Source of the DNA: a virus
Lineage: Duplodnaviria; Caudoviricetes
Reading direction: 5' to 3' (one strand)
Length of the DNA: 41,317 nucleotides
IMG/VR virus record: IMGVR_UViG_3300049164_000142
Location: 1-41,317 of that record
Shown: in pieces, positions 24,897 to 41,317 of the stretch
Layout: each line of letters begins with the position of its first letter
Numbering within the stretch: the first letter of the stretch is position 1
The notes under the pieces: model-generated
The model's input: the letters and a program-made list of their open reading frames with translations, nothing else
The model's database searches: none
What the model was told of the DNA's origin: nothing
Translations under genes and position numbers: made by a program

Positions 24897-25766
24897 ATGA
24901 CCACAGTTGTCCGTCCCGCGCCGCTCGAGACCGCGGCCGCCGGGATCCTCTCGGTCGAGTGCGAGCTCACCGGCAACTGCCAGCTCGAGTGCTCGCACTG
25001 CTGCACCCTGTCCGGACCGAAGGTGAGCCACGGAGACATGACCCTCGCCGACTGGCAGCGGGTCGTCGACGACACCGCGGAGCTCGGCATCCCGGCGATC
25101 CAGTTCATCGGCGGCGAGCCCACCCGCTCGCTAAGCCTGCTGCCGTTGATCTCGCACGCGCTGTGCCGCGGCCTCGAGGTCGAGGTGTACTCCAACCTGA
25201 CCCATGTCCGGCCGGCGATGTGGGCCGCGTTCGAGCAGTACGGCGTGCGGCTGGCCACCAGTTACTACAGCAACCGGGCCGACGAGCACGATCGGATCAC
25301 CGGCGGTCGTGGCAGCCACGCCCGGACCCGCCGCAACATTATCGAGGCCCTCGAGCGCGGCATCCGGCTGCGGGTCGGGATCGTCCACGTTCACGACGGG
25401 CAGCGCGTCCACCAGGCCGAAGCAGAGCTCCGCTCGTTCGGCATCGAGGACATCCGCATCGACCGCGCCCGCGGAGTTGGACGCGCGGCCGCCGACTCCG
25501 ACACCATCCCGAGCGTGAGCGAACTGTGCGGCCGCTGCTTCCACAACCGACTCGCCGTCTCCCCGGACGGCGACGTGTACGGCTGCATCCTGTCCCGCTT
25601 CATGCCCACCGGGAACGTCCGCCGCGAGGGCCTGGCCGACATCGTGCGCAGCGAGCAGTTCGCCCAGGCCCGTTCGCTGATTCCTGCCGCGGGCGCTGCC
25701 TGCACGCCGGACGACTCGAGCGACTGCAATCCGGCCAGTACCCCCGCCTGCAACCCCAAGCACTGA
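24897..25766 (+). CDS. Radical SAM enzyme with SPASM/Twitch-like domain and C-terminal Cys-x-Pro repeat tail
   Basis: CQLECSHC (CxxxCxxC), FIGGEPT, CGRC...SPDGDVYGC...GNV; tail CTPDDSSDCNPASTPACNPKH. Confidence 0.92.
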   Translation: MTTVVRPAPLETAAAGILSVECELTGNCQLECSHCCTLSGPKVSHGDMTLADWQRVVDDTAELGIPAIQFIGGEPTRSLSLLPLISHALCRGLEVEVYSNLTHVRPAMWAAFEQYGVRLATSYYSNRADEHDRITGGRGSHARTRRNIIEALERGIRLRVGIVHVHDGQRVHQAEAELRSFGIEDIRIDRARGVGRAAADSDTIPSVSELCGRCFHNRLAVSPDGDVYGCILSRFMPTGNVRREGLADIVRSEQFAQARSLIPAAGAACTPDDSSDCNPASTPACNPKH

Positions 25767-30182: not shown

Positions 30183-30677
30183 CTACCCGTGACCTGCGAC
30201 CTTGCGGACCTCCGGCGGGTCCTCTTGGGTTGCCTGCTGTTCGAGCTCCTGTACCAGAGTGCGAAGCACGAGCGCCTTCTCTCGCTTCGACCGCGGACGC
30301 TCATCGAGGATGTTGAGGATCGCCTTCCGCTGCCAGTCCTCGAGCCCGGCGAGCGGGTCGGGCATGTGGGCCGGCTCCGGTTCCGCGTCAGCGCTCTCGA
30401 TCTCTCTGAGGATCGCAGCCGCCTCCGGGCGCCCGGCAGTCGCAAGGCGTTCGGACGTCACGCCGACGGCGTGTGCCATGTGGGCGAGGGTGGGGTCCTT
30501 GGCGATGACTGGTTGGTCGGAGTCTGCCCGCCGGCCGGCCTCGATCTGCCGCCACCGGCTGCCGCTGAAGCGGATCGCCATCCTGGCCGCGGCTTTCTCC
30601 GGGCTGAGTCCCGCGGCTTCACGTGCGAGGCGGATGAGGGACGCCTCCGCCGGTGGGGGCGTCGCCGGTGTGGTCAT
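30183..30677 (-). CDS. Immunity repressor candidate (XRE-like HTH)
   Basis: IRLAREAAGLSPEKAA...SGSRWRQIEAG...TLAHMAHAVGV; divergent from the Cro-like gene. Confidence 0.8.
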   Translation of the reverse strand: MTTPATPPPAEASLIRLAREAAGLSPEKAAARMAIRFSGSRWRQIEAGRRADSDQPVIAKDPTLAHMAHAVGVTSERLATAGRPEAAAILREIESADAEPEPAHMPDPLAGLEDWQRKAILNILDERPRSKREKALVLRTLVQELEQQATQEDPPEVRKVAGHG

Positions 30678-30779
30678 GACCGTCCTTCCCCTGTGCGTCG
30701 CTGTATTGGACTTTCTTGAACTGTAGCGAACTGTCGCAGGTCAAGGGCCAGGGGACCGCACACAACCTCCACATCCGGA

Positions 30780-30801
30780 TGCGAACTTGTACAAGCTCGC
30801 A
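30780..30801. promoter_or_regulatory. Operator-like palindrome in the genetic switch
   Basis: TGCGAACTTGTACAAGCTCGCA, one mismatch. Confidence 0.65.
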
Positions 30802-30842
30802 CGCGCAGTCAAAAAAAGTGAGAGTTACTTCTTGGTACTGGC

Positions 30843-30871
30843 TTGTACTGTGCGACTTTGGCTCGTACTGT
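30843..30871 (+). promoter_or_regulatory. Sigma70-type early promoter giving a leaderless cro transcript
   Basis: TTGTAC-N17-TACTGT, 7 nt before ATG 30879. Confidence 0.7.
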
Positions 30872-30878
30872 CGTATAC

Positions 30879-31115
30879 ATGAAACCCCGGATAGACCCCA
30901 CGGCGCTGACGCGTAGGCGAGTCTTGGCGGGACTGAACCAGAGCGACCTCGCAGAACGAGCCGGCATCAGCAAGTCGCACGTCTCGATGGTCGAGAACGG
31001 CCAGTCCGGCCTTTCGGCCCGTGCTCTCGGTCAGGTCGCCAGAGCACTTGGCTGCGACATCGCGGATCTCCTGCTTGACGAAGAGCCGGCCGCCAGCGCT
31101 GGAAGCCCCGCCTGA
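30879..31115 (+). CDS. Cro-like XRE regulator
   Basis: GLNQSDLAERAGISKSHVSMVENG; first gene of the early operon. Confidence 0.88.
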   Translation: MKPRIDPTALTRRRVLAGLNQSDLAERAGISKSHVSMVENGQSGLSARALGQVARALGCDIADLLLDEEPAASAGSPA

Positions 31116-31300
31116 TGACCAGGGAAGAGCGCAGCCGCATCCTCAGCCCTGCCGAGATCGCCGACGCCCGCCGACAGGCCACCCAGGCCGTCGCCGAGGT
31201 CGGCATCCCCAGCGAGCTGATCGAACGCCTGCGGCCGGTCCTGGCCCCCGTCGCCGAACGCCTGGCAGACACCTCACCCCAACACGAGATGGCGGCCTGA
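31115..31300 (+). CDS. Hypothetical protein
   Basis: TGATG coupling on both sides. Confidence 0.7.
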   Translation: MTREERSRILSPAEIADARRQATQAVAEVGIPSELIERLRPVLAPVAERLADTSPQHEMAA

Positions 31301-31401
31301 TGTTCGCCTGCGCCTGGCTCTGCCCGACGTGCCGGCACCGCAATCCGGTGTGGCGGATGGTCTGCCGCCGCTGCCGTACCGAACGGCCTCTCGGGGCCTG
31401 A
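31300..31401 (+). CDS. 33-aa RanBP2-type zinc-finger microprotein
   Basis: WLCPTCRHRNPVWRMVCRRC matches W-x-C-x2-C-x3-N-x6-C-x2-C; TGATG coupling. Confidence 0.7.
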   Translation: MFACAWLCPTCRHRNPVWRMVCRRCRTERPLGA

Positions 31402-31472
31402 CAGATGAAAGGGCCCGCCGGACGCCCCCGGCGGACCCGGCCCACTGAGCTACCAGCGAGGAAGTGGACCCT

Positions 31473-31784
31473 ATGGAGTCCAGCATCCCACAGCCGCCCA
31501 AACCGGGGCCGCTGACCGACGACTACCTGCGCGCCGTGCAGGCCCGGGTCGTCGACACGCGGCACGGCCCCTGGGACGTGGTGCTCGCCGACGACGGTCA
31601 GCCGGTCGGATTCGGCCCGTTCTCCTGGGTGGAGGAGTGGCACCCGGACGAGCTGATACCCGCGGTCGAGTTCTGCCGCCACGCCCGCACCGACGTGCCC
31701 GCCCTCCTGGGCGAGATCGCCCGCCTCAAGACCCAGCTGCGCCTGCTCGACCCGCGCACCGTTCCGGTCGGGAGGCGCGTGTGA
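31473..31784 (+). CDS. Ead/Ea22-like phage protein
   Basis: GPW...EFCRHARTDVPALLGEIARL pattern; GAGG RBS. Confidence 0.6.
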   Translation: MESSIPQPPKPGPLTDDYLRAVQARVVDTRHGPWDVVLADDGQPVGFGPFSWVEEWHPDELIPAVEFCRHARTDVPALLGEIARLKTQLRLLDPRTVPVGRRV

Positions 31785-32194
31785 ACCTCCAACTCGGCAC
31801 CGAGCCCCACCCGCTGAGCGCCACCCGGCTCGCAGCGATCCGGGACGTCGCAGCCCGCGACACCTCCAGCCCGAGGGCGCGGGCCATGCGCGACCTGCTG
31901 GCGGAGGTTGACCGGCTGCGATCCGCTCCGGCGCCCTGCACGGCCCCCCGCCAACTCCCGCCGCCCACGTGCCCGCTGCGCCGCTCGGAGATTCCGATCC
32001 TCGTCGGCATGGCGCGCGGCGAGACCGTCTACGCCACCGCCCGCCGACTCGGGCTGGCCTCCGGCACCGTGCGGCAGCACCGGCACCGGATCAACAAGGT
32101 CGTCGGCTCGGTCAACACCGCCAACGCCGTCGCCCTCGCATTCGCTCGCGGCTGGCTCACCCGCAGCGACCTGTACCCGGAAGGGGACCACTGA
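31781..32194 (+). CDS. LuxR-type C-terminal HTH regulator
   Basis: LRRSEIPILVGMARG...ARRLGLASGTVRQHRHRINK...AVALAFARGWL. Confidence 0.8.
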   Translation: MNLQLGTEPHPLSATRLAAIRDVAARDTSSPRARAMRDLLAEVDRLRSAPAPCTAPRQLPPPTCPLRRSEIPILVGMARGETVYATARRLGLASGTVRQHRHRINKVVGSVNTANAVALAFARGWLTRSDLYPEGDH

Positions 32195-32544
32195 TGACCG
32201 ACCGACCCGACTACCGGGGCGTCGTTGACACCTCGGACGAGATGACGGCCGAACTCGCCGTGTTGGCCAAGCTCCTGCCGCTCGGTACCCGCATTCGCCA
32301 CCGCTCCGGCCGCGTGGGCACCGTCGTCATCGACCAGCCGCCGCACGTTCCCGGCATGTTCGACGGACGCCCCACGGCCTGGTGCTTCGCCAACGAGCAC
32401 TCGGACGAGGCGCTGGTGTGCGCCTCGTGGGACAACGATCGCGGCTTCGACCGCTGGATCTGCTGGACCTCGATCAACAGCGTCCAGAGGGTCAAGGGCG
32501 GCACGCGCTTCAACCGGCCCGCCGCGAAGGCAGGTGCCCGGTGA
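32194..32544 (+). CDS. Hypothetical protein
   Basis: TGATG coupling; high GC3. Confidence 0.7.
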   Translation: MTDRPDYRGVVDTSDEMTAELAVLAKLLPLGTRIRHRSGRVGTVVIDQPPHVPGMFDGRPTAWCFANEHSDEALVCASWDNDRGFDRWICWTSINSVQRVKGGTRFNRPAAKAGAR

Positions 32545-33005
32545 AGTACGCCGTCATCGACGCCACCTACGGCGGCCTCTCCCTCCGCGACGACGAACCC
32601 GACTGGGACACGCTGGTCGGCCCGCAGGGCAAGGACTGGGTCATCCTGCCGCCGTCGCTGAACGCCGCCGGCTGGGTCAACGGCTGCGGCCACCTCGACC
32701 CCGTCCTGCCCCGCAACATCGTCGGCTCCTGCCTGCTATACGCGATGGGCGCCAGGTTCCAGCCGCAGGCCGGGCCGGTCGTCATCACCGGCTGGGAGTG
32801 GGGCCGCGAGCCGAACGAGATCTGCTCCCTCACGCTGCCCGACTACTCGCTGCCCAGCCTGCACCGGCAGGTGCGTGAAGCGATCGACGGCCGTCACCGG
32901 CCGCGCTCACTCGATGAGCGCCGGTGGGGCGAGGAAATCCGTGAGGCAGCCTTCCGCGCCCGCTACGCCGCCCGGCCGCGCCTGACCGTGAGCGGAGGCG
33001 TGTGA
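32541..33005 (+). CDS. Hypothetical protein (DUF3846-like pattern)
   Basis: WVNGCG...LPRNIVGS...GPVVITG; GTGA overlap. Confidence 0.6.
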   Translation: MKYAVIDATYGGLSLRDDEPDWDTLVGPQGKDWVILPPSLNAAGWVNGCGHLDPVLPRNIVGSCLLYAMGARFQPQAGPVVITGWEWGREPNEICSLTLPDYSLPSLHRQVREAIDGRHRPRSLDERRWGEEIREAAFRARYAARPRLTVSGGV

Positions 33006-33196
33006 TGCCGATCCAGCCCATGACGGACTCCGAGCGCGTCCTCGGACAGATTGAGCGCGGCGAGATCCGCGCCGGTGCCGACGCCGCGCGCGAGGTTGCT
33101 GCCCGCCACCAGGCCGCCTACGGCGACGCCGTATGGCCGTCGTTCGACGACGTCCTCACGTCGGTCCTCGAGGAGAAGAAGGCGAGCTCGTCGTGA
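33005..33196 (+). CDS. Hypothetical protein
   Basis: GGAGG RBS; TGATG coupling. Confidence 0.65.
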   Translation: MPIQPMTDSERVLGQIERGEIRAGADAAREVAARHQAAYGDAVWPSFDDVLTSVLEEKKASSS

Positions 33197-34461
33197 AGCC
33201 AACCCGTCCGGCGTCAACGTCGTCTGCCGCCGGTGGACAAGGGCCCGCCGCAGAGGCCAAGGCGGGGGAGGAGCGTCGCTCCGCTGCTCCCGTGACCCCG
33301 CCTGCGCCGGGCGGGTTCCCGACCACCCGCCCGGAGTCAACGTCACCCGCCGCCGGTCTCCACGGGCCGGCCGCGGGAGCGAAGGCAGGAGAGGAGTCCT
33401 CCCGTTCCATGCGGACCCCCGAGACCCTGCCTGCTCCGGGCGGGCTCCCCACCGCCCGCGTGGTCCTGCCCGCTGACGCGCCGGAGGACGACTGGCACTC
33501 CGTGCGCCGCAGCGGGATCGGCGGCAGCGACGTCGCCGCGATCCTCGGCATGCACCGCTGGAAGGGGCCGCTGCACGTGTGGGAGGAGAAACACGGCCGC
33601 GGCGACCACTCCGACAGCGAGGCCGCCTACTGCGGGCGGAAGTTCGAGGGCGTCATCGCGGAGATGTTCTCCGAGCGCACGGGCCTCGAGATCGCGCCGT
33701 CGCCCGGCACGCTTCAGCACCTCGACCGGCCGTGGATGCTCGCCAACATCGACCGCCTGGTCCTCGAGCGCACCCCGGCCCCCGACCCGACCGTCGTGCC
33801 GCTCGAGGTGAAGAACCGCAGCGAGTACCAGGCGCGCCAGTGGGAGGACGACGTCCCGGATGAGCCCGCCCTGCAAGCCCACTGGTACACGGCGGTCACC
33901 GGGGCGAGCCACGCGTACGTCACCGCCCTCATCGGCGGCAACCGGCTGCGCTGGTTCCGGCTCGAGCGCGACGAAGAACTGATCGCGCATCTGTCGACGT
34001 ACTGCCGGGACTGGTGGCTCCAGCACGTCGTCGAAGGCACCCCGCCCCCGCCGGACGGGTCGAAGGCCACGACCGAGCTGCTGGCACACCTCTTCGACGT
34101 ACGCGAGGGAGCGACCACCGAAGTCGACCCGGTGGAGCACATGATCCTGCGCGAGCGCCGCCGTGAGCTGAAGGCACGCATCGAGGCCGACGGCGAAGAG
34201 CTCGCCGAAGTCGAGAACCAGCTGCGCGCCGCGCTGGGCGCGACAGAGGTCGCCACCATTGGCGGCCGGCCCGTCTACACGTGGCGGCAGAACGGCAACT
34301 TTGCCGTCGCCCGGTTCCGCGACGCGGAGCCCGAACTCGCCGCGCAGTACGTCCGCATGGTTCCGGCCGTCGACACCGAGCGTCTGGCCGCCGACCACCC
34401 CGAGATCTACCGCAGCTACCGAGCACGCCGCCTGATCGTGCCCTCGGAAGGAACATCATGA
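33193..34461 (+). CDS. yqaJ: YqaJ / lambda-Exo-like recombination exonuclease (start uncertain: GTG 33193 or ATG 33409)
   Basis: WHSVRRSGIGGSDVAAILG, WMLANIDR, LEVKN, QAHWY, ALIGGN. Confidence 0.9.
   Translation: MKPTRPASTSSAAGGQGPAAEAKAGEERRSAAPVTPPAPGGFPTTRPESTSPAAGLHGPAAGAKAGEESSRSMRTPETLPAPGGLPTARVVLPADAPEDDWHSVRRSGIGGSDVAAILGMHRWKGPLHVWEEKHGRGDHSDSEAAYCGRKFEGVIAEMFSERTGLEIAPSPGTLQHLDRPWMLANIDRLVLERTPAPDPTVVPLEVKNRSEYQARQWEDDVPDEPALQAHWYTAVTGASHAYVTALIGGNRLRWFRLERDEELIAHLSTYCRDWWLQHVVEGTPPPPDGSKATTELLAHLFDVREGATTEVDPVEHMILRERRRELKARIEADGEELAEVENQLRAALGATEVATIGGRPVYTWRQNGNFAVARFRDAEPELAAQYVRMVPAVDTERLAADHPEIYRSYRARRLIVPSEGTS
33202..33453 (+). repeat. Tandem 123/129-nt structured repeat, in frame with yqaJ
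   Basis: Two aligned units, each folding into three stems with compensatory substitutions between copies. Confidence 0.85.
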
Positions 34462-35372
34462 GCAACCTGAAGGCCCGCGTGCAGGAGGCCACCGCGGCTG
34501 TCCCGCAGCAGCCGGAGCCGTCCACCGACCTGGCCGAGCAGAACCCCACGCTCAAGTGGCTCGAGCGGCGCAGCAGCCTCATCGCCCGCGCCCTGCCCAA
34601 GCACATCGACGAGAGCCACTTCATCGAGGCCGCGCTCACGTCCATGGACAAGCTACGGAACTGCCACACCGACACCATCTACACGGCGCTTATGGCGTGC
34701 GCCCGGTTCGGCCTCGCACCGGACGGAGTACGGGCGGCGATCGTCCCCTTCGGGAAGACGGCCACGTTCGTGCCCATGTACCAGGGGCTGCTGGACGTGA
34801 TGCACCGCTCCGGCCAGGTGCAGTCCGTACGCGTCGACTTCATCCGCGAGCAGGACGTGTGGGACTACACGCCCACCGCGCCGACGCCTGGCGACTTCTA
34901 CCACCGGCCCCGCGTGGAGCTCCCGAAGGAGCAGCGCGGCGAGGTGATCCTCGCCTACGCCTACGCGTGGATGACGGGCGGCGGCCGCTCGCAGGTGGTC
35001 CTCCTGAACCGGCAGGACGCCATCGAGATCCGCGACCTGTACTCGAAGGCCTACGCGTACGCGGAGAGCACCGGCAAGCGCGACTCCGCCTGGCACACGC
35101 ACTTCGACCAGCAGTGGGGCAAATCCTGCGTCCGCCGCCTCGCGAAGCTCGTGCCCACCTCGCCCGAGGTGATCGACCTGCTGAAGGCCGACGTCGACGC
35201 CGACGAAGGCCGGCCGCCGCACATCATCCGCGCCGTCGCGCTCGACACCCAAGACGAGCAGGACGGCCAGGACGCGGAGCACCACCAGGCCCCGGAGACG
35301 ACGTCGTGGCCCGACGCTGCGAAGCCCGGCTCCGGCCGCCCGACGCAGACGGACGGAGGCGAGGAGCAGTGA
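34458..35372 (+). CDS. recT: RecT-family single-strand annealing protein
   Basis: ALPKHI, GLAPDG, IVPFG, YQGLLDVMHRSGQV, SAWHTHFDQQWGKSCVRRLAKLVP. Confidence 0.92.
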   Translation: MSNLKARVQEATAAVPQQPEPSTDLAEQNPTLKWLERRSSLIARALPKHIDESHFIEAALTSMDKLRNCHTDTIYTALMACARFGLAPDGVRAAIVPFGKTATFVPMYQGLLDVMHRSGQVQSVRVDFIREQDVWDYTPTAPTPGDFYHRPRVELPKEQRGEVILAYAYAWMTGGGRSQVVLLNRQDAIEIRDLYSKAYAYAESTGKRDSAWHTHFDQQWGKSCVRRLAKLVPTSPEVIDLLKADVDADEGRPPHIIRAVALDTQDEQDGQDAEHHQAPETTSWPDAAKPGSGRPTQTDGGEEQ

Positions 35373-35728
35373 GCCGCGACCAGGAAGAACATCTCCTGCG
35401 CCACCTCGCGGCTCACGGCATTCGTGGAGTGCGCGAGGCCCAGTGGACGCCCGAGATAGCCCTGGACCACGTGCGAGAGCAGCGCGCCCGGTACGCCGGA
35501 ACACCGCGCGTGGAGAAGCTCGGACAGGCCGGACGCGACCTGGTCGAGCATCTGGCTGGGCGGACCAGCCTGCCGCCCGGCGACGTCGCGATGGTGCTGC
35601 TGGTCGCCGGGGCGTACGCGGCGTCGATCGGCCTGCTGGGCGGTGCGTCCGGCACGGAGGTCGGCGAGATCATGCAGTGCGCCGCCGACGACCTGGACCA
35701 GCAGGCAAAGGCCGGTGAGCAGCCGTGA
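35369..35728 (+). CDS. Hypothetical protein
   Basis: GAGGAG RBS; GTGA overlaps on both ends. Confidence 0.7.
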   Translation: MSRDQEEHLLRHLAAHGIRGVREAQWTPEIALDHVREQRARYAGTPRVEKLGQAGRDLVEHLAGRTSLPPGDVAMVLLVAGAYAASIGLLGGASGTEVGEIMQCAADDLDQQAKAGEQP

Positions 35729-36213
35729 CCACCCTCGCCATCTGCCTGACCGTCTATGGTCTGCCCGCGCCGCAGGGCTCGAAGCGCTCGTACGGGCCCG
35801 GCCGCATGGTCGAGTCGTCGAAGAACGTGAAGCCGTGGCGCGAGGCCGTGAAGACGGCAGCCCGCGACGCGATCGGCCACGACACCGCCTGGGTCCGCCT
35901 CGACGGACCGGTGTCCCTGGACGTCGCCTTCTACTTCGACCGGGCCAAGCACCACTTCGGCACCGGCCGCAACGCGGGCCTGCTCAAGCCGTCCGCCCCG
36001 GCCTGGCCCACCTCGCCCCCGGACCTGTCCAAGCTCATCCGCTCCACCGAAGACGCCCTGACCGACGCGGGTGTGTGGCGGGACGACAGCCGCGTGGCCA
36101 CGGTCCGGGCCGCGAAGCGGTTCGTCGACGACGGCGCCGGAACCCTCAGCACGCCCGGCGCGGTGATCCGCATCTGGCGCCTGACCGACCAGACCAAGGA
36201 GAGCTGGCAGTGA
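35725..36213 (+). CDS. rusA: RusA-family Holliday junction resolvase
   Basis: PAPQGSK, PPDLSKLIRSTEDALT, WRDDSRV. Confidence 0.92.
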   Translation: MTTLAICLTVYGLPAPQGSKRSYGPGRMVESSKNVKPWREAVKTAARDAIGHDTAWVRLDGPVSLDVAFYFDRAKHHFGTGRNAGLLKPSAPAWPTSPPDLSKLIRSTEDALTDAGVWRDDSRVATVRAAKRFVDDGAGTLSTPGAVIRIWRLTDQTKESWQ

Positions 36214-36719
36214 CCCAGTTGAAGTTCGACGCCAAGGTGAGCGCGTCGGCACAGGAAGCCCTCGAGGCGCACGTACGGCCCGTGTACGACGTGCCCGCCG
36301 CCCGACGGCTGTTCATCGGCGAGTTCGCACACACCGAGCGCACCCAGCCGGCCCCCGGCTCCGAGAAAGAGCCGACGGTCAAGGTCCGCATCACGAGCCT
36401 CGAGGTGCCGAACCAGGAGCAGGAAGGCTACGTCCGCGAGGCGCTGCGCTTCCTGCACCTTCAGCGCACCGCACGCGGAACGCTCGACGACGACGGCCAA
36501 CTCGAGCTGGACGAGCAGACGCTGCGCCTGACCGGCGGGCAGCTCGCGTACATCGAGACCGCTCGCCTGCGGGCCGCGCTCCAGCACTGGAACAGCTACG
36601 CCCGCAGGGTCCTCCACACGCCGAACCTCACCGTCACCGAGGCCCTGCACGAGCTGAAGACCGTCGCTGACGGGCTCACCGCGGCGCTGGACGGCGCGCG
36701 CGACGACGACCGCGACTGA
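36210..36719 (+). CDS. Hypothetical protein
   Basis: AAGGAG RBS; GTGA overlap. Confidence 0.75.
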   Translation: MTQLKFDAKVSASAQEALEAHVRPVYDVPAARRLFIGEFAHTERTQPAPGSEKEPTVKVRITSLEVPNQEQEGYVREALRFLHLQRTARGTLDDDGQLELDEQTLRLTGGQLAYIETARLRAALQHWNSYARRVLHTPNLTVTEALHELKTVADGLTAALDGARDDDRD

Positions 36720-36749
36720 CCTGCATGTGACTCGCATGTGACCTGCATG
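36717..36749. repeat. 3 x 11-bp direct repeat upstream of the replication gene
   Basis: TGACCTGCATG TGACTCGCATG TGACCTGCATG. Confidence 0.85.
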
Positions 36750-36795
36750 ACGCTCCCCTGACCGCTCCACAGCGCCCACGAAGGAGGTGATCACC

Positions 36796-38031
36796 GTGTC
36801 TCGACCGCAGCGTGTCCGCGTGCCCTGGCGGGTGGTCACCTCCTGCCACTACGGCGACGCCGCCCTGGCCGTGTACGTGAAGATCGCGGCGCTCGGGCAG
36901 CGGCCGGAGGGCTGCACCGCCGGCGTCTCCTACCTGTCCGGCCTGCTGGGCGTATCCCGCTCGAGCGTGGAGCGATCGCTGACACAGCTCATGCGGCCGG
37001 CTCCGGACGACGACGTCGTGGAGGTCACCTCGTACCGGCGCACGATGCCGGGTGGCCGTGGCACCACCGCGGTGCGCCGGGTGCGCAAGCCGGGCCGGGC
37101 CGAGCTTGGGGCGTGGGTGCCGACCCGGGCGGCGGAGGCCCTGTCGCCGCGGCAGCTGCGGGCGTACGCCGCCCTGTCCTACGCCATGGCGACCGGGCAC
37201 CGGCTGACGCTCTCCGAGATCGGCACGGTGCTGCGGCACCGCACCGGGAAGCGGGCCGGGCAGCCGCTCGACAGCCGCTCCGTACGGCGCATCCTCCGCA
37301 GCCTCGCCGATCTCGGCTGGATCACCGTGGAGCAGCGCGCCGGCTACCGCGGCCGCCACGTCTACACCGTCCACGACGAGCCGTCGCAGCTGACACTGAC
37401 TGCGGATCTTGATGAGGGATCGGGTGCGGATCTTGAAGACGGGTCCCTCGCGATAGAGGAAGACCCGCAGATTGACTCACCTGATGACGAGCGGGCCGGT
37501 GGTTCCATCCGCCGGAGGCGAGAGCAGGTAGTAGCGGGGGACGCTGTGGAAAACCCGCCGCCCCTCGCGGTCAAGAGCCCGTACACGGGGCCTGAACTGA
37601 GTCTCGCTCCGCGGATCTGGCGAGTCCTCGAGCCGGTTCACTGCCTGCTGGCCGGGCTGTCGCCGTACATCGTGCGCAGCCTGGCGCGGGAGGCCGGACG
37701 GCAGCTGGACGCCGGGGTGGAGCCGGAGCGGCTGCGGCAACGCCTTGAGTTCCGGTACGCCTCCACCGACGACATCCGTGACCCGGGCCGCTGGCTGCTC
37801 GGTGCCGCGATCGTCCGCCACGGCTGCGGCCTCATCGCCTGCGAGTCCGGCCGGATCTGGCGCACCGGCGAACGCTGCCAGGTGTGTGCCGACCTCCGCG
37901 CGGGCGGCAGACCGCCTGCCCGGCCGCCCGGGCAACCACGGCCGCCGTACCCGGGCCCGCCCTACCCAGGGCCGCCGCGGGCCACCTGGTGCAGCTGCCC
38001 AGAGTGCGTCCCAGCCGGGAGCTCGTCATGA
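36796..38031 (+). CDS. Putative replication initiator: two winged-HTH-like segments and a C-terminal Cys cluster
   Basis: AAGGAGG RBS; LSGLLGVSRSSVERSLTQL, SVRRILRSLADLGWI; CGLIAC...CQVC; internal direct repeats. Confidence 0.65.
   Translation: MSRPQRVRVPWRVVTSCHYGDAALAVYVKIAALGQRPEGCTAGVSYLSGLLGVSRSSVERSLTQLMRPAPDDDVVEVTSYRRTMPGGRGTTAVRRVRKPGRAELGAWVPTRAAEALSPRQLRAYAALSYAMATGHRLTLSEIGTVLRHRTGKRAGQPLDSRSVRRILRSLADLGWITVEQRAGYRGRHVYTVHDEPSQLTLTADLDEGSGADLEDGSLAIEEDPQIDSPDDERAGGSIRRRREQVVAGDAVENPPPLAVKSPYTGPELSLAPRIWRVLEPVHCLLAGLSPYIVRSLAREAGRQLDAGVEPERLRQRLEFRYASTDDIRDPGRWLLGAAIVRHGCGLIACESGRIWRTGERCQVCADLRAGGRPPARPPGQPRPPYPGPPYPGPPRATWCSCPECVPAGSSS
37401..37445. repeat. 2 x 21-bp direct repeat inside the initiator gene (iteron-like)
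   Basis: TGCGGATCTTGATGAGGGATC and TGCGGATCTTGAAGACGGGTC, 24-bp period. Confidence 0.7.
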
Positions 38032-38354
38032 ACCACCCGAGACCGTCCCCGCCGCCGAACGTGCCGCAGCCGGCCTCCGCCGAACTGCTCGCCCTGGCCG
38101 CCAAGGCCCGGCCCGACTGGGACCCCAACGCCCTCCGAGACTGCCTCGCTCACGCCCGCTACCAGGGCATGACGTGGGGCCAGGTCCTCGCCGCCGTCGG
38201 CCGCCTCATGGCCGACCCGGTCGCCGAACCGGCGGACCTGCTTCCCGCCGCACCCGAGCCGTGGAGGCAGCGCCGCCCGGTTCCCCAGCCCGACACCGCA
38301 CACCGCGGGGCCGCCGCCGTACGCGCCGCCCTGCACACCAACCCCAACGACTGA
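38028..38354 (+). CDS. Hypothetical protein
   Basis: ATGA overlap; ARPDWD motif. Confidence 0.7.
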   Translation: MNHPRPSPPPNVPQPASAELLALAAKARPDWDPNALRDCLAHARYQGMTWGQVLAAVGRLMADPVAEPADLLPAAPEPWRQRRPVPQPDTAHRGAAAVRAALHTNPND

Positions 38355-38362
38355 GGGAGATG

Positions 38363-38791
38363 ATGGCGATGGTTGCAACGACGCACCACGTCGCCGGTAC
38401 CACCTCGCACCACCTGCTCACCACCATCCGCACCGGCCTGACCACCTGGACGCTGCGACACTCGCGCCGCGCCCAGGCCGTCTACTTCGAGCGGCTCCGC
38501 ACGTCGCTGCCCGTCCTAAACCCGGACCGGCACGCGCTCGAGAGCTGCGCCGTGGAGGCCGCGTTCGCCCGCCTGGCGATCGCCCACCCCGACAAGGTCA
38601 CCCCCGCCGACGGCGGCCAGGCCGCCCGCAGCATCGACCGCGAGCAGCAGCTGCTCGCCGCCTGCGACGCCTGGTTCCGCGAGGCCCACGGTCCCGAGCG
38701 CTCATGGCCTCCGGCCACCATCGCCGCGTACAACCGTCTGCTCGAGGACGTCCACGCCGTCTGCCTGCGGAACCGCGGAGGCGCATCATGA
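38363..38791 (+). CDS. Hypothetical protein (start 38360, 38363 or 38369)
   Basis: GAGGGAG RBS; coupled to the next gene. Confidence 0.65.
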   Translation: MAMVATTHHVAGTTSHHLLTTIRTGLTTWTLRHSRRAQAVYFERLRTSLPVLNPDRHALESCAVEAAFARLAIAHPDKVTPADGGQAARSIDREQQLLAACDAWFREAHGPERSWPPATIAAYNRLLEDVHAVCLRNRGGAS

Positions 38792-39126
38792 CCGCCCCCG
38801 CCCGGCCGCGTATCGAGCAGGCCGCCCCGGAGCTGCGGCTGCTGCTCCGCACCCGCCTCCACGCCGCCGCCGGCGCGCCCGTCACCGAAGTGCGCGTCAC
38901 TCACCACCGGCGCGCCGACGCCCGCCTGTACTGCGTGATGGCGCTCGGCACCGGCCGCCGGGAGATCCCGCTGCCGAAGGGCGCGGCGAAGGAGATCAGC
39001 GACGTGCTGCGGTCCGCGTTCCCCGCCGCCCGCTGGGGCCGCGCCCAGGACTACGACGTCACCACCGGCGTCCTGACCGAGCACGTCACGCCGATGCCGT
39101 CCTGCCTCCGAGGCGGTGCCCGATGA
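38788..39126 (+). CDS. Hypothetical protein
   Basis: GGAGG RBS; ATGA overlap; AFPAARWGRAQDYDVTTG. Confidence 0.7.
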   Translation: MTAPARPRIEQAAPELRLLLRTRLHAAAGAPVTEVRVTHHRRADARLYCVMALGTGRREIPLPKGAAKEISDVLRSAFPAARWGRAQDYDVTTGVLTEHVTPMPSCLRGGAR

Positions 39127-39848
39127 GCCCCTGGAAGACGGACCGGCCGCGCGCCGACCACTACGACACTGCGGCCCGCGCGAAGGCCGCGCCGGGCGAC
39201 TGGGTGCTCGCCACCACGTACGCCGGCCGCAACACGGCCGACTCGATCGCCCGGTTCGTACGGACCGGCGGGGGTCGGATCGCCCACGCGTACCGGCCCG
39301 CCGGCCGGTTCGAGACCAAGCAGGAGACGGTCGACGACGGCACCGAGCTGTGGGTGCGCTACCTGCCCACCACGGTGGACGCCCTGCGGGCCGGGCTGCG
39401 CTGGCTGTACGGCACGGAGCAGCCCGATGGAGCGATCGTGCACCACCGTGGCCCGGCGATCCCTGCGACTGGGAACCGCTGGTACGGCGTCTGTCCCGTA
39501 GGGGCGACTGGGCGCCCGGTGATCTCCGTCGATGTCGCCCGGGTCGAGTGGGTGGACCGCGGCGTGGAACGCGTGCCGGTCAACCCGCTCGAGCCCGGTG
39601 AGCTGGACCACCTGAAGTCCGTGCTCGCCGACTTGGGCGCAACCGTGCACAGCACCTGGAACGGGCATCCGTCGACGAACGGAAGCCTCGAGCTCGCCGA
39701 ACCCGCCCACCCCACGTTGCTCGCCGCTGTCGAGCGCTACGGCCAGGGCTGCCTCGAGCACCCGCACCGCTCCGTGTTCTGCGCCTGCGACGCCTGGAAC
39801 AACGGCCGCGACCTGGCCGTGAAGCCCGACCTCGCCGGAGGTGCGTGA
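39123..39848 (+). CDS. Hypothetical two-domain protein
   Basis: ATGA overlap; YRPAGRFET N-domain; C-terminal CLEH...CAC. Confidence 0.7.
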   Translation: MSPWKTDRPRADHYDTAARAKAAPGDWVLATTYAGRNTADSIARFVRTGGGRIAHAYRPAGRFETKQETVDDGTELWVRYLPTTVDALRAGLRWLYGTEQPDGAIVHHRGPAIPATGNRWYGVCPVGATGRPVISVDVARVEWVDRGVERVPVNPLEPGELDHLKSVLADLGATVHSTWNGHPSTNGSLELAEPAHPTLLAAVERYGQGCLEHPHRSVFCACDAWNNGRDLAVKPDLAGGA

Positions 39849-40063
39849 TGGCCGCCCGCATAGAGCGCCTGGACGTGCCACTGCACCGTCTCGAGGCGGA
39901 CGTACGGGCGCTGGTCGTCCGCCAGCGCCAGCAGGCCGCCGCTGAGCAGGACCGCGCTGCCGCCGACTTCCGCGCCTCGATGGCCGCCGGCTTCACCGAG
40001 TCCTTCGCCGACTACTGCCGCCGCACCGACGCGGCCAACACCCCAGCAGGGAGCACGTCATGA
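39848..40063 (+). CDS. Hypothetical protein
   Basis: GGAGG RBS; TGATG coupling. Confidence 0.65.
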   Translation: MAARIERLDVPLHRLEADVRALVVRQRQQAAAEQDRAAADFRASMAAGFTESFADYCRRTDAANTPAGSTS

Positions 40064-40191
40064 ACGACGTCGACGACTGTTACGCCGAATTCATCGACGG
40101 CTCGTGGACCAACTGCGGCTGCGACGACTGCGAGCAGCGCGCAGCCGACGAGGACCAGGACGAGGCGCTGCTCGAGATGGGGTGGGTGTGA
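40060..40191 (+). CDS. 43-aa acidic Cys-rich microprotein (absent from the ORF track)
   Basis: MNDVDDCYAEFIDGSWTNCGCDDCEQRAADEDQDEALLEMGWV; GGGAG RBS; coupled on both sides. Confidence 0.75.
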   Translation: MNDVDDCYAEFIDGSWTNCGCDDCEQRAADEDQDEALLEMGWV

Positions 40192-40439
40192 TGTCTGCCT
40201 CCACCGGACCCGAGCACTACCAGGAGGCGGAGGTGCTTCTCGCCCGAGCCCACAACCACGGCCACCAGTACACCGCGAACATCATCGCTGCCGCACAGGT
40301 CCACGCCACGCTCGCCCTCGCCGCGGCGACGGCGATGCAGGCCGCGGTCGACGGCTCGGAGCCCGGCATGTCCCCCCAGGAGTTCACTGCCTGGTACGCC
40401 GCCTGCGGCACCACGCAGCGGAAGGACGGTGCGTCGTGA
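40191..40439 (+). CDS. Hypothetical protein
   Basis: TGPEHYQEAEVLL...AQVHATLALAAATA pattern. Confidence 0.75.
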   Translation: MSASTGPEHYQEAEVLLARAHNHGHQYTANIIAAAQVHATLALAAATAMQAAVDGSEPGMSPQEFTAWYAACGTTQRKDGAS

Positions 40440-40729
40440 GCCCGATACCACAGGTGCCGCCGGGCGGAGCGCCGGACGTCGACCCGGTGAGCTGGGTGCG
40501 GCCGCCGCTGCCGGAGGACGTGCGGCTGCGTGCCGAGAACCGGTTGCTCCGCGAGCAGGTCGACAAGCTGACGAATCAGCTCGAGGCACTCCAGTCGGCG
40601 AATGAGGGCTGGTACCGGCTCGACCACGAGCGCACGGGCGGTTCCCGCTTCGACCGTAAGCAGACGTTTCCGTCGCACCCGAACAGCCCGGGCCCGACCA
40701 CCAAGTGGTTCGCCAAGGACGACGCATGA
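40436..40729 (+). CDS. Hypothetical coiled-coil protein
   Basis: GTGA overlap; LEALQSANEG. Confidence 0.7.
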   Translation: MSPIPQVPPGGAPDVDPVSWVRPPLPEDVRLRAENRLLREQVDKLTNQLEALQSANEGWYRLDHERTGGSRFDRKQTFPSHPNSPGPTTKWFAKDDA

Positions 40730-40848
40730 CCGGCCGCGAGATCACCGGCACCGTGATCGGACTCGTGTTCGCCGCCATCGCGGTGTGGCCGTCGATCCGG
40801 CCCCGCATCAAGCCCACCCACCGCCCCGGGAAAGGGGATCCGAAATGA
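40726..40848 (+). CDS. 40-aa single-TM microprotein (absent from the ORF track)
   Basis: MTGREITGTVIGLVFAAIAVWPSIRPRIKPTHRPGKGDPK; ATGA overlaps on both ends. Confidence 0.7.
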   Translation: MTGREITGTVIGLVFAAIAVWPSIRPRIKPTHRPGKGDPK

Positions 40849-41255
40849 AGTTCCGCCTGCCCCGGGGCACCGGCGCCCATCGCTCCGCCAGCCCTCGCCA
40901 ACTGCGCGCGGAGAACCGCGAGCTGCGGGCCCGCCAGGCCGCGGCGGACGACTTCTTCGCCCGGCTCATCGAGGACCGCGACGCCGTCCACGCCGCATAC
41001 GAGACCGCGAAGCAGCGGTATGTCGAAGCGGAGCTCGTGGTCGTGTGCCAGCAGCACGAGCTCGGGTTGCTCGAGGCGCAGGTGACCGCGCTCGAGTCGG
41101 ACCTCGCGAACCTGCGCGCCGTCTCCGCACCGGCCGGTACGCGCGACGTCGACCCGGACGACCAGCCGACCGAACCCACCGGCACCCCCGTGAAGACCCT
41201 GCACGAGGCGCTCGCCCTCGCAGGCACGAAGGCCCTCGCCGTCCGCCTCCCCTGA
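40845..41255 (+). CDS. Hypothetical coiled-coil protein
   Basis: AAAGGGG upstream; ADDFFARL, PDDQPTEP. Confidence 0.7.
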   Translation: MKFRLPRGTGAHRSASPRQLRAENRELRARQAAADDFFARLIEDRDAVHAAYETAKQRYVEAELVVVCQQHELGLLEAQVTALESDLANLRAVSAPAGTRDVDPDDQPTEPTGTPVKTLHEALALAGTKALAVRLP

Positions 41256-41258
41256 ACC

Positions 41259-41299
41259 GCCCGGCCGCCGGAACGCCCCCCAGCCCCCGGCGGCCGGGC
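41259..41299 (+). terminator. Intergenic stem-loop
   Basis: 13-bp perfect stem GCCCGGCCGCCGG / CCGGCGGCCGGGC; followed by AAGGAG for a gene beyond the window. Confidence 0.55.
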
Positions 41300-41317
41300 A
41301 CCCACCCCAAGGAGAAC

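Follow-up and report, generated by a model that had tools for sequence, protein, structure and literature searches.

What are the two folded units that open the reading frame of yqaJ in this phage, and what could they do for the genes around them? The window, which is the whole stretch of DNA analysed, is a viral record of 41,317 bases with a CheckV completeness estimate of 65%. It codes for terminase, portal, major head and tape-measure proteins, a serine integrase, two HTH regulators, yqaJ, recT and rusA. Since the closest named relatives of its YqaJ come from Streptomyces (79% identity), the record probably represents a temperate Streptomyces phage. Positions 32900-33900 also occur without any difference in a soil-metagenome contig, which may be the same DNA as the source of the window. 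A gene for a radical SAM domain protein (24897-25766, PHROG 1802) is located between the structural genes and the integrase.

The units are preceded by a 63-codon gene of unknown function (33005..33196, plus strand, PHROG 2660); the same PHROG is matched by a second early-region gene at 39123-39848. The TGA of the 63-codon gene (33194-33196) overlaps a GTG codon (33193..33195, plus strand) in a GTGA configuration. This GTG is located 21 nt 5' of the first unit core and, judging from the sequence, is likely the coupled start of a protein made up of the array peptide and YqaJ. Counted from it, yqaJ (33193..34461, plus strand) has 422 codons and codes for a RecE-like exonuclease (Pfam YqaJ, E 1e-26; PHROG 434, E 5e-91), and its stop codon is overlapped by recT (34458..35372, plus strand; Pfam RecT, E 5e-28). 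Approximately the first 84 yqaJ codons correspond to both units and read as a repeat rich in P, A, S, T and G, which is also present in YqaJ homologues. No sigma-70-type promoter was found in 30600-41317.

Both units fold into a three-way junction on the plus strand. In unit 1 (33202..33316), P1 (33202-33214/33304-33316) is closed by a U.G pair, and the junction strands 33215-33222 and 33255-33259 flank P2 (33223-33254). P3a (33260-33266/33297-33303) carries a kink-turn arm (33267..33296) composed of GA 33268-33269, the C-stem 33270-33275/33285-33290, the loop L3 (33276-33284), which holds CUCC, a bulge (33291-33293) and a second GA (33294-33295). Unit 2 (33326..33444) follows after a linker (33317..33325, plus strand). 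It has P1 at 33326-33337/33433-33444, junction strands 33338-33345 and 33378-33382 around P2 (33346-33377), and P3a at 33383-33389/33426-33432. Its kink-turn arm (33390..33425) includes GA 33391-33392, the C-stem 33393-33399/33413-33419, L3 33400-33412 holding CCGUUC and ATG 33409, a bulge (33420-33422) and GA 33423-33424.

Compared with shuffled sequences, the plus strand folds with z of -2.03 for unit 1 and -3.69 for unit 2, while the minus strand reaches only -0.28 and -0.85, respectively. In the ensemble of the two units together, P1 and P3 have pair probabilities of 0.8-1.0, with the exception of one terminal P1 position of unit 2, while the P2 values are about 0.67 (unit 1) and about 1.0 (unit 2). 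A scan of the 41.3 kb record with the family covariance model described below found these two copies only, with 103 and 99 bits; the next match scores 19.8.

An earlier note had described two like-folded units at the 5' end of yqaJ, and every stem was recovered where it had been placed, together with the shared TCAACGTC, the two GAGGAG motifs and the in-frame GTG 33292 and ATG 33409. Its unit lengths of 123 and 129 nt agree with direct-repeat spacings of 123 and 129. Two details had to be revised. The single G thought to separate P3 from P1 forms a pair with the T of TCAAC, seen as U.G in all 38 and all 44 rows of the two alignments considered below, so P1 and P3 abut. The invariance of TCAACGTC holds between these two units but not across the family, in which the junction strand CAACGYCR is dominant and CAAAG and TCACG variants occur. 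At 33307-33336, unit 1 could pair through its 3' arm with the 5' arm of unit 2 to give an alternative 10-bp hairpin. A role of this hairpin as a selected switch was rejected: adjacent arms are paired at 8.7 of 11 positions, compared to 8.8 of 11 for arms taken from different arrays.

Candidate homologues were collected by searching viral, genome and metagenome collections, as well as 401 Streptomyces genomes, with sequence patterns; loose patterns yielded mostly chance matches. A covariance model was built from 38 units and run on 200 candidate loci, giving 87 and 84 matches. After matches from loci repeating the same contig or sequence had been dropped, 158 were kept, including the two of the window. 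The 146 matches that could be parsed (12 variants could not) comprise 142 distinct units, and a complete dissection was obtained for 141 of them, from 113 loci. Most later counts exclude two units whose parsing was faulty (L068, L405), which leaves 51 array units and 88 single copies. As defined by the pattern scans and the covariance model, the family therefore comprises at least about 140 distinct units, spread over 113 loci. When 23 candidates per genome were scored, and with the centre genome counted each time, model matches were found in at least 6 of 151 Streptomyces genomes and in at least 5 of 151 Actinomycetota genomes; in two of these five Actinomycetota genomes the match did not resemble a copy on inspection.

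Named carriers include Streptomyces, Promicromonospora, Kribbella, Blastococcus and one Acidobacteriota bin. Among cultured phages, the element was found in the Arthrobacter phages Ranunculus (E 9e-13) and BruhMoment (E 7e-9). Each has one unannotated copy with a long P1 and without the anti-Shine-Dalgarno (anti-SD) loop discussed below (PQ362686.1, L441:1138-1273, and OM818331.1, L451:2498-2652, respectively). BLAST searches with units and arrays gave no carrier among cultured Streptomyces phages or plasmids, and a BLAST match in Attoomi is not a copy of it. Several of the other loci have features of their own. One genome (G640) contains three dispersed divergent copies (L454, L458, L459), one of which, L458, matches the 16S tail over 11 nt. 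In Streptomyces kronopolitis, copies follow two paralogous genes without phage-like appearance (L130, L147), with a hairpin after each. The copy in the Acidobacteriota bin (L154, 288-411, minus strand) is located between genes like those of locus L292 and, if the bin assignment is right, lies outside Actinobacteria. Two non-Streptomyces loci have three (L325:803-1343) and two copies (L359:2816-3111) at a spacing of about 180-225 nt.

The homologues covary, and their paired changes bear out the earlier claim of selection on structure. Among the 38 training units 93.2% of cells were paired, compared to 75.0% after shuffling, and 22 of 28 pairs had changed on both sides; this pairing count is biased, because 33 of the 38 rows had been picked for a paired P1. 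A second set of 44 units from outside the training set, still found with the model, was aligned with MAFFT without structure. Here, 84.9% of cells were paired against 64.5% in shuffled alignments and 36-42% in slid controls, and both-sided change was registered in 22 of 31 pairs. G.U is not clearly commoner than A.C in most stems, so the case for the units acting as RNA rather than as single-stranded DNA rests on the invariant U.G pair and on the kink-turn rules.

P3 is predicted to hold a standard kink-turn. Out of 141 units, 131 have GA on the 5' strand, 139 have GA behind a 3-nt bulge on the 3' strand, 130 have C-G at -1b:-1n (the first C-stem pair, beside the bulge) and 133 have C at 3b. 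The C-stem covaries in four of its five pairs in the 44-unit alignment, and both units of the window carry the kink-turn. C at 3b has been tied to kink-turn folding in ions without protein, the rule being either C at 3b or G at 3n, not both (PMC4382518). Unit 2 of the window (3b.3n = C.A) conforms to this rule; unit 1 (C-G, a combination present in only 9 of 141 units) does not. No tertiary covariation or pseudoknot signal between L3 and the junction was found across the family.

The kink-turn also accounts for the ribosome-binding site and start codon which each P3 arm had been thought to hold. The non-bulged kink-turn strand together with the C-stem makes up GAGGAG, and GTG 33292 is the bulge, so the presumed initiation signals are two strands of one structure. 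An in-frame start codon is located 4-14 nt past GAGG in only 5 of 51 array units. Of the two proposed starts, GTG 33292 is 18 nt away from GAGGAG, and a close relative has T at 33409, the first position of the ATG.

In Streptomyces prophages, the array consists of one to four diverged units at a constant site in the early operon and lies within a frame that is translationally coupled. This frame is well kept. Spacings between array units are multiples of three in 30 of 32 cases, 49 of 51 array cores belong to one length class modulo three, and none of the 51 contains a stop codon, while singles have no frame bias (length classes 32/30/26). The only frame-breaking spacings (127 nt) occur in L039 (third unit) and L299, and may be due to prophage decay or assembly error. 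A start codon overlapping TGA precedes the first parsed core by 18-27 nt in 21 of 24 array loci, and the shorter array frames that are complete, 14 in number, all terminate in such an overlap of start and stop codons. The array frame continues into yqaJ in nine loci and into a rusA-like gene in two, and stops within 46 codons in seven. As arrays share ancestry, these counts do not represent independent events.

The link to yqaJ and recT which the earlier note had proposed is too narrow: arrays also lead into rusA-like genes or short stand-alone frames, and most copies are intergenic singles. Its view that selection does not act on the peptide was half right, as the residues vary but the reading frame is kept. 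In a quick YqaJ tree the repeat peptide, a label taken from gene-called N-termini, is present in 48 of 62 proteins on one side and in none of 57 on the other. No P1 arm is shared between units of one array (0 of 84 ordered pairs). P1 has 11-12 bp in 46 of 51 array units, and CCA is found one base past P1 in 20 of 51; these hints at a possible release by RNase P are not similarly enriched in 85 singles.

Single copies have a different setting. They are located 3-45 nt after a sense stop codon in 36 of 74 cases, compared to 6 of 74 in a mirrored control, and 9 of the 37 upstream frames tested code for major capsid proteins. A terminator-like stem of at least 10 bp follows 29 of 84 singles (2 of 83 controls). 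For 18 singles with such a stem and enough flanking sequence, a sense gene lies within 260 nt in only 3 cases; many copies thus lack any gene that they could gate in cis. A Shine-Dalgarno-led gene is located downstream of 29 of 84 singles and mostly starts 33-56 nt past P1. In Ranunculus and BruhMoment the copy lies between the genes of a Rad52-like recombinase and a Cas4-like exonuclease, and L292 has the same recombinase upstream. No partner protein or gene is shared across the 113 loci. Eight singles (L081, L301, L328, L337, L349, L354, L366, L371) follow one protein family, the tested members of which have no Pfam match.

The loop L3 provides the most direct hint at a function. In 40 of 88 singles it has at least 6 nt in common with the 16S 3' tail, as read from an actinobacterial 16S rRNA locus, whereas shuffled loops give a mean of 4.7 and a maximum of 10 such singles. 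The match reaches at least 8 nt in 16 of the 88, and the longest one is 12 nt. None of the 51 array units, both window units included, has a 6-nt match to the tail. Array loops are instead enriched in UCCG (16 of 51 against 4.5), CUCC (14 of 51 against 6.2) and also CCGUU, which amounts to a loop drift from CUCCUUUC to CUCCG/CCGUUC. In one subfamily (L326, L379, L380, L385, L391) L3 carries the palindromic TGATCA, which resembles the 16S bases immediately ahead of the anti-SD, and pyrimidine runs such as TTCCTTT have moved to the P2 loop.

Searches for a partner of L3 close to the element were negative. The anti-SD loop is no commoner in singles with a downstream gene (16 of 29) than in those without (35 of 55, p 0.49), and L3 fits its own downstream ribosome-binding site no better than those of other copies (p 0.81). 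Own-versus-cross complementarity of L2, L3 and whole arms to the flanks was null in all but one test. The lone positive (p 0.005, the other seven of its eight being null) consists mostly of GC-rich stem matches inside coding sequences rather than of loop-to-RBS pairing. No antisense target within 500 nt survived inspection. The best matches of the window's arms in its own genome are 10-13 nt long, which we judged to be chance level, no control having been run. We also rejected a cis pseudoknot of L3 with the 3' flank (few copies, L422, L357, L378 and L067; null overall), antiterminator pairing of the element with the following hairpin (p 0.43-0.79), and an anti-start-codon CAU in L2 (27 of 88 singles against 15.8), which is unconvincing over 64 trinucleotides and absent in arrays.

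Taken by its sequence features, the element is a real, uncatalogued family of predicted structured RNAs. As for its role, we tentatively favour one possibility, drawn by analogy: the predicted three-way-junction and kink-turn RNAs may be C4-like trans-acting small RNAs which cover ribosome-binding sites. The units would be released from phage transcripts as small RNAs, and the loop presented by the kink-turn would pair with and cover the ribosome-binding sites of their targets in the manner of C4 of P1/P7. The array frame would lead ribosomes through to yqaJ-recT, and coupling would thus survive the presence of an RNA cassette that would otherwise go untranslated; the drift of the array loops would retarget L3. 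This trans-acting reading is the most economical one; it would explain the copies at operon ends, the anti-SD loop, the tandem diverged copies and the coupling-keeping frame. Against it, the own-versus-cross tests gave no target in the same operon. As the window units have no 6-nt match to the 16S tail, the anti-SD argument has to be taken from their relatives. The hints of RNase P processing are confined to the arrays, which are related to one another. If unspecific, an anti-SD RNA would also strike the phage's own genes. Besides, the near-invariant junction and the ion-folding kink-turn exceed the needs of an antisense RNA and would suit an aptamer, a ribozyme or a protein site equally.

Those two features are, in particular, what riboswitches have, and a translational gate in cis, riboswitch-like or bound by a protein, would use the folded unit to limit initiation at or coupling into the next gene, in this case the recombination exonuclease. 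P1 begins about 9 nt past the coupled start codon, two recombination modules that are not homologous (YqaJ/RecT and Rad52-like/Cas4-like) both have the element immediately 5' of the exonuclease gene, and 29 of 84 singles do have a Shine-Dalgarno-led gene to act upon. We nevertheless consider such a gate unlikely, as no expression platform was found in L3 pairing with the own RBS (p 0.81) or in pairing of the element with the hairpin (p 0.43-0.79), L3 has no tertiary covariation, many copies end an operon, and downstream genes are unrelated across loci. The sense orientation just past stop codons would suit an mRNA processing or stabilising element, at which a cut by a host RNase or a stop to a 5'-to-3' exoribonuclease would set the ratio of neighbouring genes, namely capsid to downstream genes or annealase to exonuclease. 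The major capsid genes among the tested upstream frames (9 of 37) fit this, a host factor is indicated by the absence of a partner gene common to the loci, and tandem three-way junctions past a stop codon recall viral xrRNAs (PMC5760640). Such processing would, however, leave the anti-SD loop unexplained, it has no pseudoknot signal behind it, and a protected 5' end in arrays would be without a start codon; we hold it to be improbable. Cleavage could also be intrinsic. A near-invariant junction, a protein-independent kink-turn, varied gene contexts and tandem copies might be expected of a self-cleaving ribozyme of a new class cutting the transcript at the junction, but there is no match to an Rfam family, cleavage fits poorly with a reading frame that has stayed open for YqaJ, and the anti-SD loop is again unexplained, which makes a ribozyme very unlikely.

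Alternatively, the units would be decoys which mimic the 3' end of host 16S rRNA (decoding site plus anti-SD) and titrate an rRNA-targeting nuclease, another 30S-binding factor or aminoglycosides. We find this improbable too, and give the same low credence to its full form, in which a phage mini 16S 3' end, with decoding-site strands at the junction and an anti-SD tail on the kinked arm, would have been expanded into in-frame arrays and would lure away ribosome-targeting defences or aminoglycosides. In a 5.8 kb Streptomyces rRNA operon, the junction strands find their best two-block match at the decoding site, in both strands of helix 44 and colinear with the anti-SD tail. A score as high as this (24.7) arose in 2 of 300 column permutations and in 3 of 200 shuffled operons. 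Under the 16S numbering and pairing which we presume for this mapping, adenines of the element correspond to the decoding adenines in 141 of 141 units. Streptomyces phages are reported to be inhibited by aminoglycosides (PMC9239200). The likeness is, however, post hoc, having been spotted by eye after several other comparisons, and the same score occurs 0.07-0.14 times per 5.8 kb of phage DNA. The covarying pairs place P2 in a register shifted by one base from that of helix 44 and link the adjacent P3 pair elsewhere, nhmmer gives no match to 16S, and array units have no tail match. The small palindromic in-frame mobile element also offered in the earlier note would, if taken as having no function in the phage, account for copy numbers of one to four, for the motif being present in unrelated elements and for the three dispersed copies in one genome. 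A dispersing element is hard to see in the rest of the data: the record holds two adjacent copies only, there is one array per phage and one site in each of five records, and sampled genomes have at most three sites. The array keeps its place in the early operon, the repeat peptide is confined to one side of the YqaJ tree (48/62 against 0/57), no P1 arm is common to two units of an array (0/84 ordered pairs), and singles lack frame bias. Mobility without function is thus highly improbable.

In line with the earlier note, which did not recognise the motif, it is absent from Rfam: no match was found over the whole window (Rfam 15, gathering threshold). With E up to 5-10, the window region, 7 loci and 20 loci gave scattered matches far below threshold, none of them recurring at the element; a dauA match on the opposite strand of L154 (E 4.8) was taken as chance. 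Likeness to the cobalamin riboswitch or to the hairpin, twister-sister or hammerhead core was dropped because Rfam gave no support. DNAVirus_2675 and DNAVirus_4072, two YqaJ-adjacent candidates of PMC10690425, were set aside since they come from Fusobacterium and Veillonella phages. We found no description of the element in the literature covered; the supplement of PMC5737381 and supplementary files 1-2 of PMC10690425 may also bear on it.

The family is spread over actinobacterial phages and phage-like elements and joins a conserved junction, a kink-turn and an anti-SD loop. Arrays in Streptomyces prophages, presumably translated, would escape screens of intergenic DNA, and gene callers read them as an N-terminal repeat of YqaJ. 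The element bears on the post-transcriptional regulation of early genes in Streptomyces temperate phages and on the true start of YqaJ proteins. Since the cultured Arthrobacter phages Ranunculus and BruhMoment carry a copy, its function is directly testable.

Among known RNAs, the kink-turn is shared with Actinomyces-1 (RF02928), drum, HOLDH and RAGATH-18, which have C:G at -1b:-1n, C:C at 3b:3n and C:G at 4b:4n (PMC8191799). The same signature is found here, with C-G at the first position in 130, C.A or C.C at the second in 111 and C-G at the third in 93 of 141 units, and Actinomyces-1 is of similar length (110 model positions). The element is not matched by RF02928 in this record or in four carrier genomes; the best scores, 17 and 25.5 bits against a threshold of 39.1, from a model run without positive control, are located away from the element. 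Riboswitches with kink-turns, such as SAM-I, resemble it in the ion-folding kink-turn beside a conserved junction and in tandem copies; the c-di-GMP-II and lysine riboswitches belong to this group as well. The element differs from them in having no Rfam match, expression platform or pseudoknot and no common metabolic gene downstream, and in being often located at an operon end or inside a coding frame. The 16S 3' end is similar in that L3 matches its tail over up to 12 nt and the junction strands resemble those of helix 44, but the pairing register is different, P3 is inserted at the junction and there is no profile-level homology.

For the preferred trans-acting reading the closest system is C4, beside which P4 CI RNA can be set. 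The element has a kink-turn in P3, and we know of none in C4. It is not matched by the Rfam C4 models, is about 115 nt long compared to about 77 nt for C4, is actinobacterial whereas C4 is proteobacterial, and has no cis-linked target found. C4 of P1/P7, as described in PMC5320573, is likewise a phage RNA with three stems, is processed from a longer transcript, covers ribosome-binding sites with one loop (b') and has homologues that occur in many copies.
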